Shown here in pieces: positions 17,048 to 24,277 of a stretch of 64,000 nt of DNA (its first letter is position 1; every line of letters begins with the position of its first letter). The notes beneath the pieces were generated by a model. It was not told where the DNA came from and did not search any database. It saw only the letters and a program-made list of their open reading frames with translations. Location of the stretch: assembly GCA_038727515.1 (NCBI GenBank), contig JAVYVS010000004.1:52619-116618 (forward strand), read 5' to 3'. This stretch comes from Candidatus Methanomethylicia archaeon (GTDB taxonomy: Archaea > Thermoproteota > Methanomethylicia > Culexarchaeales > Culexarchaeaceae). A program made the translations under genes and the position numbers.

Positions 17048-18271
17048 ATGCCCATGCCAATAGACTATTACACTGCTTGTATACCATATAGTTTAACGAA
17101 TCTTGCTTCGCAAATATCTTCTCCAACGCTTATCCGTATAGACATAAACATACCTGTTGTAGATGGAAGGATAATGGAGGATAATATGAGGATAATTGCA
17201 TATGCACATATACTTGAGCTTTTATCTGAGTATGCTGGTCTTGTTGTTGTAGCACATCAAGGAAGACCTGGAGATGAAGATTTTATTCCATTAAAACAAC
17301 ATTGGATTACTTTAAGAAGGCTTTTACCATCAAAGATTGATATAGAATTTATCCCTAAGGAGAAGGTTTTTACTGAAGAGACTAGGGAGAGGATTAAGAA
17401 TCTTAGGGAACGTGAAATACTTTTGCTAGATAATATTAGGATGTTTGAAGAAGAACAAAAGTGGAATCCTGAGAAATCTCAATTTCTAAAATTCTTTAAG
17501 GGTATTATTAAAAGCTGTGTTAATGATGCTATACCAGTTTGGCATAGGGCTCATACAAGTGTTATGGCGCTCCCATATATTGCTAAAACTTGGGTTGGTT
17601 TGAGATCTATGTATGAATTAAAGGCTTTAAGTGAAGTTATGCGTTGCGCCAATGATTGCGCCATTATTATGGGTGGAGCTAAACTTCAGAAAATTCAATA
17701 TTTAACGGCTATATTATCTAAGATGGAAGGTTTTACTGGAGGGCTTCCAGGGCAACTTATTGCTAGAGTTAAAGGTTATGATCTAGGTCCTAGAAACAAC
17801 TCATTTTTAGAAGCTAAAATGTCTAAGGAGGATTTTGAAGCTGCAAAGATTTTAGCTGAAAAATTTAATGTTGCTCATCCAGTGGATTTTGTTGTTTTAG
17901 ATAATGGTGAAATCAAAGAGGTTGCTTTAAAGGATATGGCGAATTGTAATGGGATTATAATGGATATTGGAAGTGAAACAGTTGAGGTATATGCTAGGAA
18001 GCTTCAAGAGAAGATTTATAGAATTAGAGCCGGCCCACTTGGAGTTTATGAAAAGGGGTTCTCCAATGGTATTGAATTAACTAAGCTTATTGCAGGTTTA
18101 GGACTTATATTTCTTGGTGGTGATACTACTGCTGAAATTGTTAAGTATGGTTTAGATAGGATTATATTGAGTACTGGTGGAATGCTTTGTATTAGTGGTG
18201 GAGCATTTATACATGGATTAGCTGGTGAAAATTATCCTTCCGTAGATCTTATTTTAAAGCAAAATAAATAA
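17048..18271 (+). CDS. pgk: Phosphoglycerate kinase (divergent)
   Basis: RIDIN.P, HQGRPG, LLDN.R, VNDA...HRAH.S, GGAK, DIG and GGDT. Confidence 0.8.
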   Translation: MPMPIDYYTACIPYSLTNLASQISSPTLIRIDINIPVVDGRIMEDNMRIIAYAHILELLSEYAGLVVVAHQGRPGDEDFIPLKQHWITLRRLLPSKIDIEFIPKEKVFTEETRERIKNLREREILLLDNIRMFEEEQKWNPEKSQFLKFFKGIIKSCVNDAIPVWHRAHTSVMALPYIAKTWVGLRSMYELKALSEVMRCANDCAIIMGGAKLQKIQYLTAILSKMEGFTGGLPGQLIARVKGYDLGPRNNSFLEAKMSKEDFEAAKILAEKFNVAHPVDFVVLDNGEIKEVALKDMANCNGIIMDIGSETVEVYARKLQEKIYRIRAGPLGVYEKGFSNGIELTKLIAGLGLIFLGGDTTAEIVKYGLDRIILSTGGMLCISGGAFIHGLAGENYPSVDLILKQNK

Positions 18272-18286
18272 AAATTAAATTTTTAT

Positions 18287-19807
18287 TTATATTCCCTCTT
18301 TAAATCTCCTATACGTATTGTAATCCACATATATTAGGTATGGATTACTACTCTGCCATTCAATATTGAATTTTTCAAGTCTTTTACGTTTCTCCAATAT
18401 TTTTGGGGTTACTGTTATTAGATAGGCATCGCTTCCAGCTCCAGAACCGAAGCTTGTTAGAAGTATCTTCTCATATGGTTTCGCTATTTCTAGTACTGCT
18501 GCAAGTCCAGCTGGACTTGATCCTGAATATAGATTTCCAAATTTTGTCACCTTTAGTGATGGTAGACATTGTTCATCTTTAAATCCAAGTCTTCTAGCAG
18601 CTCTAATTGGGAATTTAGCATTTGGTTGATGTGGTACAAAGTAGTTTATGTCTTTTGCTGTTAAATTCATCTTATCCATTAGTTTCTTTGCAGCTTTTAT
18701 TATATGTTTGAAGTATGCTGGTTCCCCTGTGAATCTTCCTCCATGAAGTGGATATCTTTGTCCATCTCTCCTCCAAAAGTCTGGTGTATCTGATGTTGAT
18801 GAATACCATCCCTCTATTTCTGCTATTACATCCATATTTCCAATTATGTATGCTGCTGCACCATATCCAACAAAGTAGTCTAATTCTCCTCCAGGCTGCC
18901 CTCTTGGCGCTGCTTGTGAATTATCTGTTCCTATAACCATTGTGAAGTATTCTTCTCCTTTTTCAGCCATGTATTTTGATAATGCAATTGCATCTTTAAA
19001 CATGCTTGTAGCTGCTTTACATGCAAATTCAGTGTCTATGGCATCTATCCCTTTAACTCCATCTCCAAGATCTTCCCCTAAATCTAATACTTGAGCTACC
19101 TTTGATGCTATTGGTTTTACTGAATATGGATTTGATTCTGTTCCAACATATATCTTCTTTATCTTTTCACCATGTAATGCTGATTGTATTAATGCTAGTT
19201 TTCCAGCTTCTACAGCTGCTGTTATTGAATCTTCATCTATAAATGGAACTGATCTCTCCATATCTCCCTCTCTTATTCTGAATCTTGATGTGTATATTGC
19301 ATATCCAACTATTCCAGGTTTCTCTGATATTTCCTTTGGTTCTTTTGTTTCATATGGTATGTATGGGTAGTATTCATCTGCAAATGTGAAGGTTAATGAT
19401 GTTGTGGGAATTATTTCTTGTGGTTCTGATGCATATCTCCTCCTAAATCTAAAGACTACTTTTCTACCTTCATAAATTTCTGGTTTGAATTCATCTCCAC
19501 TATTTAATATGTGGTCTGTAAGTCTTGCTGGAACCTTTATATCCCCTTCTTTAAGTGTTACTATTCCATAAATGTATGGTTGTAGTGGTTTGAATCTATT
19601 TGTAGCTTCATTTATTATTGTGCATACCTCTAGTATTCCCTCACTGTATATGTAGCTTGTTTCCATCATTTTCCCAATACTTTTCCTACCACATTTAGTA
19701 CAGTAGTATCTTGGTTTAAAGTATCTCTTTCCACATATTGGACATATGCTTCCACGTAATCTATCTGATATATAGCTTACCCTTCTTTCAATTGGTTCTG
19801 AACTCAT
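18287..19807 (-). CDS. HMG-CoA synthase with N-terminal DUF35 (Zn-ribbon + OB-fold) fusion
   Basis: N-terminal CxxC...CxxC and PY..G.V...RL.D; synthase motifs GTESNPY..KP, FACK, DFWRR, HQPN and GN.YSGS; start ATG 19807 overlaps thiolase stop (ATGA). Confidence 0.9.
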   Translation of the reverse strand: MSSEPIERRVSYISDRLRGSICPICGKRYFKPRYYCTKCGRKSIGKMMETSYIYSEGILEVCTIINEATNRFKPLQPYIYGIVTLKEGDIKVPARLTDHILNSGDEFKPEIYEGRKVVFRFRRRYASEPQEIIPTTSLTFTFADEYYPYIPYETKEPKEISEKPGIVGYAIYTSRFRIREGDMERSVPFIDEDSITAAVEAGKLALIQSALHGEKIKKIYVGTESNPYSVKPIASKVAQVLDLGEDLGDGVKGIDAIDTEFACKAATSMFKDAIALSKYMAEKGEEYFTMVIGTDNSQAAPRGQPGGELDYFVGYGAAAYIIGNMDVIAEIEGWYSSTSDTPDFWRRDGQRYPLHGGRFTGEPAYFKHIIKAAKKLMDKMNLTAKDINYFVPHQPNAKFPIRAARRLGFKDEQCLPSLKVTKFGNLYSGSSPAGLAAVLEIAKPYEKILLTSFGSGAGSDAYLITVTPKILEKRKRLEKFNIEWQSSNPYLIYVDYNTYRRFKEGI

Positions 19808-21003
19808 TTTATCCACCTCCTAAAGATACATACATATGTTTTTGTTCCAAATCCTTCATGTTCCATGGTTAGAGCATAAGCATTTTCATATATTGGGATT
19901 TGTCTATCTCCTGCTTCACCCATCATTTGCATACATACCTCACATACTTGTGCTCCACCAGTAGCTCCATATGGATTTCCATCAGCTTTTAATCCCCCAT
20001 TTGTATTTACGTATACTTCTCCATTCATTGTTCTATACGTATACTTCTTTTCCTCTATACTATTCATTATCATCTTCCATGCATTTCCAGGTTTAGATAA
20101 ACCTATATCTTCAAGTGCTATTAACTCCATTACTGTGGATTGATCATATAATTCCATTAATTTTATATCTTCAATATTCACTTTTGCTTCTTTTAATGCT
20201 TTTTCCATTGCTATCTTTGTGGATTTAAATCCAATAAGAGTTTCTCTAGTTGTATATGATAAGTGGTCTGTAGCGCATCCTCTGCCTACTATAGTTAAAC
20301 CCTTTTCCAATCCAATTTCTCTAGCTTTTTCCTCCTTTGCTATTATTATTGCTGCTGCTCCATCTGATATTGGTGCATAATCATATAATCCAAGTATTCC
20401 ACCCCTTCTAGCTTTAATAACTGTTTCTATATCCACCTTTGACCTATAGAATTGTGCATATGGATTTCTAGATCCAAATTCATGATTTTTATGTGAAATA
20501 TATGCTAATGCTCTCATTAGTTTCTCTACATTTTCTCCATTGATTCCATATGTCTTTATGTATTCTCTTAACATAAGTTCATGATGGGCCTCCATAGTTC
20601 CTCCAGCATAGTAACTCCATGAATCTGCTAACATCATTATATCATCGCCAATTTTATCCAATCTATCAGTCATCTTTTCCACTCCACCTACAAGTACTAT
20701 GTCGTATCTACCTGCTTCTATGGCGTTACATGCATGATTTATAGCTGAACTAAATGATCTTGCAGTTTCCATTGGTATATGTACATCTAATATTTCCGAT
20801 ATGAATCCCTCTTCTAATCCTATTTTATTTGTTAATTGTAGGAAATGATTTGATACTATAACTGCATCTAAATCTTTCCTCTCTATCCCAGCTTTTTCTA
20901 AAGCTTTTAACCCTGCTTGTTCAATTAATTCTTCAGGGTCTTTTTCATAATGTTCTCCGAAGGGGGTTCTTCCATAGCCTATTATTAATGGTTTGTTCGA
21001 CAA
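19804..21003 (-). CDS. Thiolase-family protein lacking catalytic residues
   Basis: G.T.FG, GGVEKMTD, NPYAQF, PISDGAAA and GGLKA.G.P.GATG are present; CASG, HDCF and GHP are replaced. Confidence 0.85.
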   Translation of the reverse strand: MSNKPLIIGYGRTPFGEHYEKDPEELIEQAGLKALEKAGIERKDLDAVIVSNHFLQLTNKIGLEEGFISEILDVHIPMETARSFSSAINHACNAIEAGRYDIVLVGGVEKMTDRLDKIGDDIMMLADSWSYYAGGTMEAHHELMLREYIKTYGINGENVEKLMRALAYISHKNHEFGSRNPYAQFYRSKVDIETVIKARRGGILGLYDYAPISDGAAAIIIAKEEKAREIGLEKGLTIVGRGCATDHLSYTTRETLIGFKSTKIAMEKALKEAKVNIEDIKLMELYDQSTVMELIALEDIGLSKPGNAWKMIMNSIEEKKYTYRTMNGEVYVNTNGGLKADGNPYGATGGAQVCEVCMQMMGEAGDRQIPIYENAYALTMEHEGFGTKTYVCIFRRWIK

Positions 21004-21077
21004 CTGTCGTTCACCTTTACGATGATTGTCGAATTAATATTATTATGTATTAGAGTTTAAAAAGGTATGGGTTACTT

Positions 21078-21965
21078 ATGACTTCCTTTAGGAGTATTGC
21101 TGAGTGTAGAGGGTTTGTGGTTAAGATTCCATTTAATTGTTGGTTTAGTTTCTTCAATAGTCCTTATCCAGCACATAAATCATCTACTGCTTTAGATGTA
21201 TATTATCCTGAGGGGGAGGGTTTAATGCCATTGGATGAAGGTTTAATTTTAGAAGTTGAGAAATTTGAGTGTCCAGTTAAACGTTTTGATGCTTCAAATT
21301 TTGATTATTTAATATTAATTAGATGTTCAGAAGATGTGGTTTTAAAGATATTACATGTTAAACCTAGTGTTAAACCTAGTGAGAAAGTATTTCTTGGTGA
21401 TCCTTTAGGTAGAATTATTATTTCTGGTTTTTTATCGCCATGGTCTGATATACATATGCATTTAGAATTTAGGGATATTAGAGATCCATATAGAGCTTTA
21501 GGAGCCTTTAAATTGGATATTTCAAAGACCATTGATATGTTACCTAAACCTGAGAATATTTCAAACATTTTTATTGTAGATGAGGTTTTTGATTACTATG
21601 TTCTATTAAAACCCCTTGACTACATGAATTTTCAATGTGGTTTAACTGTTAAAGTCGATGGTGAATATTTTTGGGTTGATGGTGGAATACCACATTATGG
21701 TTATGGTTCAATACTTGGGTTTAATGGTTTTGGGGATGTTAAATATGTTAATGATGAATGTATAGGCTCAATATATTTCCATGATAATTGTTATTCTTTA
21801 TTTAAACCTTCATGTAATGTTTTCTTGAATGGTTTTAAGGTTAAGGGTGTTGGAAGCTATATTGGTCTACCTAAATTAAAGTTGATCTTGTTAAAGGAAG
21901 AACATAACCTTAAGATTGGAGATATAGTTCACTTAAACTTCAACTTCCCTATAACAAAACTTTAA
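21078..21965 (+). CDS. Hypothetical protein with M23 (LytM)-like metallopeptidase motifs
   Basis: H(x6)D, ILHV..V...V..GD.LG..G and HMHLEFR resemble the M23 HxH signature. Confidence 0.5.
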   Translation: MTSFRSIAECRGFVVKIPFNCWFSFFNSPYPAHKSSTALDVYYPEGEGLMPLDEGLILEVEKFECPVKRFDASNFDYLILIRCSEDVVLKILHVKPSVKPSEKVFLGDPLGRIIISGFLSPWSDIHMHLEFRDIRDPYRALGAFKLDISKTIDMLPKPENISNIFIVDEVFDYYVLLKPLDYMNFQCGLTVKVDGEYFWVDGGIPHYGYGSILGFNGFGDVKYVNDECIGSIYFHDNCYSLFKPSCNVFLNGFKVKGVGSYIGLPKLKLILLKEEHNLKIGDIVHLNFNFPITKL

Positions 21966-21997
21966 TTATACATTTTGATATTTAAGTTGGTGAGATT

Positions 21998-23044
21998 TTG
22001 ACTGAAATGTATGCTGTAGTTAAAGATAAACCTGAATATGGTGCAACCTTTAAACGTGTTCCAATACCCTCAATAGGTTATGGTGAAGTTCTAATTAAGG
22101 TGAAGGCAACATCTATTTGTGGAACTGATCTACACATATATCGTTGGGATTCATGGGCTCAATCTAGAATTAAGATTCCAAGGATTATGGGTCATGAATT
22201 GACTGGTGAAGTTGTAACTGTTGGTGAAGGTGTTAAATCTGTTAATGTTGGAGATTACGTTTCAGCTGAAACACATATTGTTTGTAATAGTTGTTTTCAA
22301 TGTAGAACTGGTATGAAACATGTTTGTCAGAATACTAAGATTCTAGGTGTTGATACTGATGGTGCATTTGCAGAATATATTGCTGTTCCAGCTGAGAATA
22401 TCTGGAAAAATCCACCAGATCTACCAATAGAATATGCTTCTATTCAAGAGCCTTTAGGTAATGCTGTAGATACTGTTTTAGCTGAAGGTTATGAGGGTGT
22501 TGAGGGTAAGAGTGTTGTGGTTTTTGGTGATGGTCCTATTGGAATTATGTGTGTTGGTGTTGCTAGAGTTTTTGGAGCTTCTAAAATTATCATATTTGGG
22601 CATAGTGATTATAGATTGAATATTGCTAGGAAGCTTGGTTGTGATTTAGCTATAAATTCTAGGGGTATTGATACTGTTAAAACAGTTATGGAATATACTG
22701 GTGGTCAAGGTGTAGATGTGGTTCTAGAGGTTTCAGGTAATCCTCAAGCTTTACGTGAATCTCTTAAAATGATTAAACCTGGAGGTAGAATATCTATATT
22801 GAGTATTTATGGTGGAGATGTATCTCTAGATGTTAATAATGGTATAGTATTTAAAGCTGCGAGAGTTTATGGTGTTACTGGTAGAAGGATTTGGAATACA
22901 TGGTACATAGTTTCAGAGATTATTAATAGTGGGAGGCTAGATTTATCTCCAATAGTAACACATAAATTGAAATTAAGTGAGTATGCTGAGGGTATGAAGG
23001 CTATGGAAGAACGTAAATGTGGTAAAGTGGTGATGTTCCCATAG
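21998..23044 (+). CDS. tdh: L-threonine 3-dehydrogenase
   Basis: SICGTDLHIY.WD, GHE, SAETH..C..C..C and QEPLGNAV; adjacent to kbl. Confidence 0.93.
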   Translation: MTEMYAVVKDKPEYGATFKRVPIPSIGYGEVLIKVKATSICGTDLHIYRWDSWAQSRIKIPRIMGHELTGEVVTVGEGVKSVNVGDYVSAETHIVCNSCFQCRTGMKHVCQNTKILGVDTDGAFAEYIAVPAENIWKNPPDLPIEYASIQEPLGNAVDTVLAEGYEGVEGKSVVVFGDGPIGIMCVGVARVFGASKIIIFGHSDYRLNIARKLGCDLAINSRGIDTVKTVMEYTGGQGVDVVLEVSGNPQALRESLKMIKPGGRISILSIYGGDVSLDVNNGIVFKAARVYGVTGRRIWNTWYIVSEIINSGRLDLSPIVTHKLKLSEYAEGMKAMEERKCGKVVMFP

Positions 23045-23095
23045 TTGAAGTGAAAATTATATGTACATTTTTAGATATATTTGTGGTGGATTAGT

Positions 23096-24277
23096 ATGAG
23101 TAGGCTGTCATATCTTAAAGCTGAATTGGAGAATTTAAAATCTCAAGGATTGTTTTTTGTTGAAAGAATTAGAGCTGGTGCTCCAGATAATAGGGTTAGG
23201 ATTGGCGGTAAAGAGTATATATTGATGTGCTCAAATAATTATCTTGGGTTAGCTAATCATCCCAAGATTAAAGAGGCAGCTATTAGGGCTATAGAAGAAT
23301 ATGGTGTTGGTGCTGGTGCTGTAAGGCCTATATCTGGAACTACAGATCTACATATTGAAGCTGAAGAGAAAATTGCAAAGTTTAAGCATAGAGAGGCTGC
23401 AATTCTATTTCAATCTGGATATGTAGCTAATGTTGGTTCTATTTCTGCATTAGTTGGCGATGAAGATGCAGTAATTAGTGAAGAACTTAATCATGGTAGT
23501 ATAATTGATGGTATTAGATTAACTAAGGCTAAGAGACTCATATATAAGCATATTGATATGGTTGATTTAGAAGCTAAATTGAAGGAAGCTAAAGATTCTA
23601 GAAGGAGGTTTATTATCACTGATGGAGTATTTAGTATGGATGGTGATATTGCACCTCTCGATGTAATTGCTGATTTAGCAGATAAATATGATGCAATCGT
23701 ATATGTTGATGATGCCCATGGAGAAGGTGTTCTAGGTGATCATGGTAGAGGTATAGTGGATCACTTTAAACTTCACGATAGAATTGATATTGAAATGGGT
23801 ACTTTATCTAAAGCTTTTGGTGTTATAGGTGGTTATATTGCTAGTTCAAAGGAAGTTGTAGAATATTTAAAGCAGAGAGCTAGACCACATCTACTTAGTA
23901 GTGCAATAAATCCACCTGATGTTGCTGCAATAATAGCTGCCATAGACCTACTTTCATCTACCGATGAACCTTTAAAGAAGCTTTGGAATAATGCTAGATT
24001 CTTCCAGAAATCTCTTGTGGATAGAGGGTTTGATATTGGTAATACTAAGACTCCAATAACTCCAGTTATGATTAGAGATGAGAAGAAGACTCAAGAGCTT
24101 GTTAAAACCCTATTTGATGATTACTATATATTTGTTCAAGCAGTTGTTTACCCATGGGTTCCAAGGGGTACTGCTAGAATTAGATTTCAACCTAATGCCA
24201 CCCATAGTCTAGATGATTTAAAGTATGTTATAGACTCCCTCACTGAAGCTGCAAAGAAACTTAAAATTTTATCTTAG
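23096..24277 (+). CDS. kbl: Glycine C-acetyltransferase (2-amino-3-ketobutyrate CoA ligase)
   Basis: SNNYLGLA, LNH.SIIDG, DGVFSMDGD, DDAH and TLSKAFG (PLP Lys); downstream of tdh. Confidence 0.9.
   Translation: MSRLSYLKAELENLKSQGLFFVERIRAGAPDNRVRIGGKEYILMCSNNYLGLANHPKIKEAAIRAIEEYGVGAGAVRPISGTTDLHIEAEEKIAKFKHREAAILFQSGYVANVGSISALVGDEDAVISEELNHGSIIDGIRLTKAKRLIYKHIDMVDLEAKLKEAKDSRRRFIITDGVFSMDGDIAPLDVIADLADKYDAIVYVDDAHGEGVLGDHGRGIVDHFKLHDRIDIEMGTLSKAFGVIGGYIASSKEVVEYLKQRARPHLLSSAINPPDVAAIIAAIDLLSSTDEPLKKLWNNARFFQKSLVDRGFDIGNTKTPITPVMIRDEKKTQELVKTLFDDYYIFVQAVVYPWVPRGTARIRFQPNATHSLDDLKYVIDSLTEAAKKLKILS

Follow-up and report, generated by a model that had tools for sequence, protein, structure and literature searches.

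What can a thiolase contribute to the mevalonate pathway once its catalytic residues have been replaced? This question is raised by a stretch of 64,000 nucleotides from a Candidatus Methanomethylicia archaeon (assembly GCA_038727515.1, contig JAVYVS010000004.1), referred to here as the window; all coordinates are positions of this stretch. Its minus strand between 18287 and 21003 was found to hold two translationally coupled genes: (i) an upstream gene for a thiolase-fold protein, which we name PTH; and (ii) a downstream gene in which a DUF35 module is fused to 3-hydroxy-3-methylglutaryl-CoA (HMG-CoA) synthase (HMGCS). An earlier note, made from the letters of the DNA, had described PTH as an intact frame with all catalytic residues replaced and had proposed that it is a non-catalytic scaffold, with acetoacetyl-CoA coming from another source. 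Our analysis favors a similar reading: with a probability of roughly 0.6, the DUF35::HMGCS fusion has in PTH an obligate but non-catalytic partner, and acetoacetyl-CoA would be supplied by a stand-alone thiolase encoded elsewhere in the same genome. The parts of the operon are as follows.

19804–21003, minus strand: PTH, a 399-residue thiolase-fold protein without the thiolase catalytic residues (R82 / Y286-D-Q-S / N343 / E381-x-E383), from the open reading frame (ORF), profiles, alignments and an AlphaFold2 model.
21001–21015, minus strand: start region of PTH, with GGTGA (21015–21011) 7 nucleotides before the TTG start codon (21003–21001), from the ORF and homologue alignments beginning at residues 1–7.
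19379–19807, minus strand: DUF35 module, the N-terminal part of the fusion, with a CxxC...CxxC zinc ribbon and an OB fold (Pfam zf-ChsH2, 24 bits; OB_ChsH2_C, 21 bits); its boundary with HMGCS is approximate.
18287–19378, minus strand: HMGCS module of the fusion, with the catalytic tetrad E-C-H-N intact (NF003274, 358 bits against a cut-off of 244; the single match in the genome).
19804–19820, minus strand: translational coupling signal, with GGAGGTG (19820–19814) and an ATG (19807–19805) that overlaps the TGA stop of PTH (19806–19804), from reading of the sequence.

The PTH frame was found to have zero internal stops, and both the thiolase profiles and the structural model bear out the intact 399 residues described in the earlier note. 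Profile matches included Pfam Thiolase_C_1 (PF22691, 106 bits) and Thiolase_N (PF00108, 60 bits), and the best solved relatives were the Pyrococcus furiosus thiolase 7YVY (190 bits) and 6ESQ_A (161 bits), the latter being the thiolase of the thiolase/HMGCS/DUF35 complex of Methanothermococcus thermolithotrophicus. An AlphaFold2 model was made (predicted local distance difference test, pLDDT, 77; predicted template modeling score, pTM, 0.83), and a Foldseek search with this model returned 6ET9_C as the top match (template modeling score 0.82–0.84), with 7YVY also among the top matches (about 0.83). Profiles and model together assign PTH the five-layer thiolase fold, with a thiolase domain at either end. 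PTH nonetheless scored below the curated cut-offs of two NCBIfam profiles for archaeal SCP2-type acetoacetyl-CoA thiolases, reaching 279.6 against 420 for NF004720 and 211.4 against 600 for NF053570.

The catalytic loops were then read from pairwise and family alignments, which agreed with the three replacements listed in the earlier note (ACASG to TARSF, EVHDCF to ELYDQS, and GHP to GNP) and added a fourth. At the nucleophile elbow, METAR-SFS of PTH aligns with VE(A/C)AC-ASG by HMMER and in the family alignments, and comparison of ETARSFSS with E(A/C)ACASGS indicates the loss of one residue. The register at this site differs with the method, as HMMER places a gap at the Cys, ungapped counting from the conserved Glu gives R82, and the register of the earlier note gives A81; none of these alignment registers places a Cys at the nucleophile position. 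In the second loop the His, Cys and Phe of EVHDCF correspond to Y286, Q288 and S289; in the third the His of GHP corresponds to N343 (DGNP); and the NxGG loop, which the earlier note had not listed, reads E381-x-E383-G. When PTH proteins were compared with 86 relatives that keep the Cys/His/His set, the invariant replacements specific to PTH were R82, F84, E138, E142, L145, A210, Y286, Q288, S289, N343, E381 and E383, together with a short insert at 65–69. Published mutants of related enzymes bear on the change at Y286: the archaeal complex with H284A in its HDxF motif no longer forms HMG-CoA, and H294Y in PfACAT of P. fluorescens, the same His-to-Tyr exchange as Y286, nearly abolishes thiolysis (PMC12960953). 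Judged by its residues, the predicted loss of thiolase chemistry (both thiolysis and condensation) from PTH is well supported, because the nucleophile is missing, the HDxF His is a Tyr and the GHP His is an Asn, and because of these mutants; the non-catalytic claim of the earlier note, in so far as it concerns thiolase chemistry, is thereby upheld.

The one residue that the earlier note had named as a possible substitute nucleophile, the Cys of HACN (C92), was rejected. C92 is the only invariant Cys of PTH (119 of 120 homologues), but it lies inside a helix of the model (84–96), 10 residues past the elbow, and is shared with sister thiolases that are catalytically intact, and therefore it is not a replacement for the nucleophile. 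The remaining Cys residues of the window protein are unconserved, and a Cys near position 378 that occurs in 100 of 120 members is absent from it. The bulky or charged side chains of R82, F84, Y286, E381 and E383 probably fill the former acyl pocket; this filling, like the placement of C92 relative to the pocket, was judged from secondary structure and helix geometry.

The synthase partner, in contrast with PTH, appears complete. Aligned to 6ESQ_I, the window HMGCS keeps E82, C114, H238 and N270; this tetrad has been demonstrated to be essential (PMC12960953). As the fusion is the only HMGCS match in the genome and an HMG-CoA reductase is also present, the operon is concluded to serve the mevalonate pathway. 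The NCBIfam HMGCS match begins at residue 186 of the fusion, which corresponds to profile position 40. The stop codon of PTH and the start of the synthase gene form an ATGA overlap at 19807–19804, as the earlier note had read, with GGAGGTG six bases upstream; the most likely start of the synthase, given these signals, is therefore MSSEP (506 residues) and not the GTG of the ORF list. This arrangement is not confined to the window: PTH followed by DUF35 and HMGCS in one frame was found at 76 of 76 loci with enough flanking sequence (the other four being cut by contig ends), and all 17 fusion-bearing genomes in a sample of the class also carry PTH.

We also examined whether the replacements are a property of one genome or of a family. 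The 120 best homologues (55–81% identical) carry the same substitutions throughout, with no Cys in the nucleophile column in 120 of 120, the Tyr and Gln in 119, and the Ser and Asn in all 120; many positions are invariant across 34 aligned family members. In a representative library of 1.84 billion proteins the family forms one full-length cluster at 50% identity, matched at 498 bits, with the next at 244 bits. Relatives were detected in 424 species-level genomes, mostly Bathyarchaeia, plus Culexarchaeia and some Methanomethylicia, the closest being from Ca. Culexarchaeum nevadense (78%). Across an even sample of 401 Thermoproteota genomes, PTH was present in 60, as a single copy in each and on an all-or-none basis per family. 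The earlier note had proposed conservation among orthologs and the ratio of nonsynonymous to synonymous substitution (dN/dS) as checks, and both point the same way: dN/dS was 0.12 and 0.085 for PTH compared with 0.066 and 0.058 for the fusion gene, in the two pairs for which the ratio is usable (L102–L103 and L106–L107; comparisons of the window with its relatives are saturated, with dS above 1.5). Identity across classes was 54–64% for PTH and 60–72% for the canonical thiolase of the same genome pairs. By these sequence comparisons PTH is a conserved family under strong purifying selection, neither a chance frame nor a gene in decay. Among its most conserved segments are 54–74 and 111–136 (mean top-residue frequency 0.87 and 0.92), which were modeled at low confidence and would look like partner-dependent interface loops. 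Literature searches found no description of the family. As a side observation, many 50%-cluster representatives of SCP2/archaeal-type thiolases (P0124–P0264) have Ser, Asp, Pro, Gly, Asn or Glu in place of the nucleophilic Cys, and members of this kind appear to be common, and largely uncharacterized, in the clan.

If PTH does not make acetoacetyl-CoA, another enzyme would have to do so, and a candidate was found where the earlier note had proposed to look for one, in the same genome. This genome, which is 93.6% complete (G000), encodes exactly one other thiolase-fold protein, a 394-residue canonical thiolase with CACASS, HDCF and GHP intact, followed by a stand-alone DUF35 (contig C1, about 238.8–240.3 kb for the pair). 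It scores 482 on NF004720, above the cut-off of 420, and is only about 30–35% identical to PTH. A further five PTH genomes were examined, two of them complete Bathyarchaeum chromosomes, and each has orthologues of the pair (60–72% identity); in the phylum sample a Cys-type thiolase was detected in 53 of the 60 PTH genomes at E ≤ 1e-60. Five of the seven exceptions were searched again; two of these were found to have a classical thiolase (PF00108, 272–278 bits) and one a fragment at a contig end. The two with a classical thiolase, the Bathyarchaeia-type genomes G050 and G215, lack the SCP2-type stand-alone thiolase; the classical enzyme, of 433–436 residues, is an apparent non-orthologous replacement. 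A gene for 3-hydroxyacyl-CoA dehydrogenase was found 20 kb away from that of the canonical thiolase in the window's genome, and Culexarchaeia have been described as encoding beta-oxidation (PMC9723716); the canonical thiolase may therefore serve both acetoacetyl-CoA supply and beta-oxidation.

Phylogenetic analysis with IQ-TREE recovered PTH as a clade with 100% support, which has a long stem (0.59) and lies within thiolases that contain the Cys; its sister is the P0122 group (98%). Relatives of this sister group occur in 14 of the 401 sampled genomes, in other Thermoproteota families, and each of the 14 has one thiolase match, the linked one. At the eight sister loci inspected (L137–L144; families f17, f22, f32, f34 and f51), every thiolase is intact, with EAACASG, HDCF, GHP and NIGG, and precedes a DUF35::HMGCS fusion without a stop. 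These operons share with that of PTH the gene order and the fusion, and their thiolases share with PTH 39–40% identity, the motif GGLKADG and the "AC" Cys 92; they differ from it in keeping the catalytic loops and in being the sole thiolase of their genomes. As active thiolases already precede the fusion, the fusion is therefore older than the loss of catalysis, and the idea that both arose together was rejected. Two further observations concern this clade: the DUF35 zinc ribbon of the L137–L144 fusions seems to keep three Cys (C-x2-C ... C-N-V-E-G), compared with CxxC...CxxC in the window, and P0122 itself, in an otherwise active clade, shows a Ser in the nucleophile position, HDS, and GNP for GHP. 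This may be a third case in which catalytic residues have been lost, here in part.

In the class to which the window belongs, three arrangements were found: (i) unfused HMGCS, active thiolase and DUF35 with a single thiolase in the genome (families f4 and f8); (ii) a Cys-less thiolase with DAGGASG, YDDY, GAP and TSCGFN between unfused, intact HMGCS and DUF35 (family f6, L119–L126), in genomes where the stand-alone thiolase has an orthologue as well (E about 1e-150); and (iii) PTH with the fusion (other families). The E-C-H-N tetrad is kept in all of these synthases. The f6 type was placed elsewhere in the tree than PTH, and a single origin of the HMGCS-linked dead thiolases was rejected by the approximately unbiased test (p = 0.0004, difference in log-likelihood 89.7), for a group that had been named after seeing the tree. 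Overall, where the linked thiolase is dead a separate thiolase and DUF35 are present, and where it is active there is no separate thiolase, with at least two independent losses. Since related genomes are not independent, this pattern is counted as two events and not as 60.

These results suggest the following course of events. The ancestor of PTH would be the subunit that acts as acetoacetyl-CoA thiolase in the archaeal thiolase/HMGCS/DUF35 complex; once a second thiolase was present, catalysis in the linked subunit may have become dispensable while the subunit itself was still needed. PTH would still assemble with DUF35::HMGCS as a scaffold, giving the synthase the partner surface it needs for solubility and activity and contributing its half of the shared CoA-binding chamber, and acetoacetyl-CoA made by the stand-alone thiolase/DUF35 complex would reach HMGCS as a free intermediate. 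Several published findings are consistent with this course. Expressed singly, archaeal HMGS shows no activity and ACAT is not soluble; a fused CoA-binding chamber is common to the two; and in the bacterial complexes PhlABC, MucABC and PfACAT, which descend from the archaeal kind, a dead HMGS subunit has been retained (PMC12960953). In addition, thiolase and DUF35 pairs function without HMGCS in S. acidocaldarius (bioRxiv 10.1101/2024.07.05.601840).

Other points weigh against this view. Two PTH genomes of 95–97% estimated completeness yielded no other thiolase on re-search. The replaced residues lie in segments that rank among the best conserved of PTH (RSFSSA, YDQST, GGLKADGNP and ExEGFGTK); a pure scaffold does not obviously require such conservation, which could point to a new site for catalysis or ligand binding. 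In the thiolase-fold aldolases Ltp2 and Sal, the catalytic base is a Tyr in the place of the HDxF His (PMC12329534). Finally, abandoning the channeling of a thermodynamically unfavorable intermediate calls for an explanation.

A rival reading is that the pocket of PTH has been repurposed, either as an enzyme with new chemistry, such as Tyr-based acid/base and Cys-independent catalysis on a CoA thioester as in Ltp2 and Sal, or as an acyl-CoA sensor or regulatory site controlling HMGCS. We consider this unlikely. In its favor, R82, Y286, Q288, N343, E381, E383 and K388 are polar or charged and nearly invariant, and a Tyr also occurs in the second independent HMGCS-linked lineage (YDDY), which would be convergent evidence. 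Ltp2-ChsH2(DUF35) and Sal-Shy(DUF35) (6OK1 and 9MYR; PMC12329534), as well as TbSLP (YDCF), resemble PTH in having an SCP2-thiolase fold, no nucleophilic Cys, a Tyr for the HDxF His and a DUF35 partner, and in Sal the likeness extends to an amide at the GHP His position. Ltp2 has the motif YDHF, and Sal has Gly89 at the Cys position, YDCY, and by spacing Gln352 at the GHP-His position (PMC12329534). With YDHF and YDCY taken as equivalent to HDCF, following that study, the catalytic Tyr is present in PTH as Y286. The second catalytic residue of the retro-aldolases is absent from PTH, however: Cys304 of Sal is Q288, and N343, 50–57 residues downstream, corresponds to Tyr344 of Ltp2 and Gln352 of Sal by spacing only. 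PTH is also structurally nearest to the archaeal complex thiolase, with Sal and Ltp2 at Foldseek ranks 28 and 49, and differs from both in its phylogenetic origin, the tree placing it inside the HMGCS-linked acetoacetyl-CoA thiolases, and in the lack of a steroid-catabolic context. The neighboring genes (HMGCS, phosphoglycerate kinase and an uncharacterized ORF) suggest no substrate, and the distribution of the second thiolase is explained without new chemistry. A version based on malonyl-CoA-dependent, decarboxylative chemistry was rejected as unlikely, because a search of the genome, at 93.6% completeness, gave no carboxyltransferase. If the pocket were repurposed, Bathyarchaeia and Culexarchaeia would enter isoprenoid lipid synthesis by a chemistry, or under a control, unseen in described mevalonate pathways.

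An adaptor role would keep the channeling whose thermodynamic rationale still applies; PTH would either join the canonical thiolase in a mixed core or bring that thiolase and its DUF35 to the HMGCS complex. The thiolase cores of such complexes are dimers of dimers, as in Phl(A2C2)2B4 (PMC12960953), PTH and the stand-alone thiolase occur together in nearly every PTH genome, and the conserved segments 54–74 (with the insert at 65–69) and 111–136 are interface-like. This explanation is equally unlikely, since the gene of the canonical thiolase lies far from that of PTH and is accompanied by a separate DUF35, in the manner of autonomous pairs, and since the two proteins have only the 30–35% identity given above; the unrelated classical thiolases of G050 and G215 likewise argue against a specific, co-evolved interface. 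That PTH is instead a functionless relic, recently inactivated and heading for loss, has in its favor that all catalytic residues are gone, but conservation as good as refutes it: more than 400 species-level genomes of several classes hold an intact frame, dN/dS is about 0.1, and the fully supported clade has deep internal divergence. An RNA-library run of a metatranscriptome (X17) yielded low-depth contigs, 95–99% identical, over parts of the fusion and PTH in a close relative; these are a weak hint of transcription, with DNA carry-over possible, and the run is uninformative over 20841–22000, where it gave no cover.

PTH as a non-catalytic partner of the synthase can also be set against better described systems. 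Type II polyketide synthases offer a parallel in the ketosynthase/chain-length factor pair, in which a Cys-less paralogue of the thiolase superfamily is kept as the obligate partner of its catalytic paralogue. The chain-length factor belongs to another branch of the superfamily and pairs with its own paralogue in one dimer, whereas PTH is proposed to pair with HMGCS through DUF35. The complex of M. thermolithotrophicus (6ESQ/6ET9; Vogeli et al. 2018, as cited in PMC12960953) has in common with the PTH operon the thiolase fold (31–32% identity), three partners encoded together and the pathway step. It differs in that the Cys, HDxF His, GHP His and NxGG are all replaced in PTH, DUF35 is fused to the N-terminus of HMGCS, and an active thiolase and DUF35 are encoded elsewhere, such that channeling from PTH as the linked subunit would be impossible. 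In PhlABC, MucABC and PfACAT/HMGS-DUF35 (PMC12960953) the tripartite architecture is kept despite one dead subunit of the thiolase superfamily, as here, and in PfACAT/HMGS-DUF35 the DUF35 is fused to the HMGS subunit as in the window. The PTH operon is a mirror image of these bacterial complexes, which combine a dead HMGS-like with a working ACAT-like subunit, while here a working HMGCS is combined with an apparently dead ACAT-like one; a further difference is that its pathway still belongs to primary metabolism.

The genes around the operon were also inspected. Divergent from PTH, across a 74-bp spacer (21004–21077) common to both genes, lies a 295-residue ORF without a Pfam match (21078–21965, plus strand), which is syntenic with PTH in Culexarchaeia-like loci (45–70% identity; L007, L008 and L010–L014) and not in Bathyarchaeia. 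Convergent with the synthase gene is a phosphoglycerate kinase gene (17048–18271, plus strand; Pfam PGK, 186 bits), a neighborhood kept in L009–L014. Farther along the plus strand, 21998–23044 resembles by eye a zinc alcohol-dehydrogenase-type protein of the threonine dehydrogenase kind, and 23081–24277, which follows it, a pyridoxal phosphate enzyme similar to 2-amino-3-ketobutyrate CoA ligase; together they are likely to form a pair that converts threonine to glycine and acetyl-CoA. The stretch is present in hot-spring metagenomes from ten studies.

The thiolase/HMGCS/DUF35 complex is regarded as the archaeal way of pulling the unfavorable condensation of acetyl-CoA, by channeling acetoacetyl-CoA into HMGCS. 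The complex itself was already known; new here are the case from Culexarchaeia, the sister clade with an active thiolase, the complementary distribution of linked and separate thiolases, and a second loss that was independent of the first. The results indicate that a large part of the Thermoproteota, including Bathyarchaeia, which are among the most abundant sediment archaea, keeps the architecture of the complex with its thiolase half switched off. This switch occurred independently two times or more, and in each case the genomes have a thiolase apart from the linked one. The annotation of the PTH gene as an acetyl-CoA C-acetyltransferase would then be wrong about its activity. If PTH is the obligate non-catalytic partner that we favor, it follows that channeling is dispensable in these lineages, and an essential non-catalytic role of the thiolase subunit for archaeal HMGCS is implied. 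The lineages compared here, from an active linked thiolase to a dead one with a back-up thiolase, may thus provide a natural series for the origin of a pseudoenzyme subunit in a core metabolic complex.

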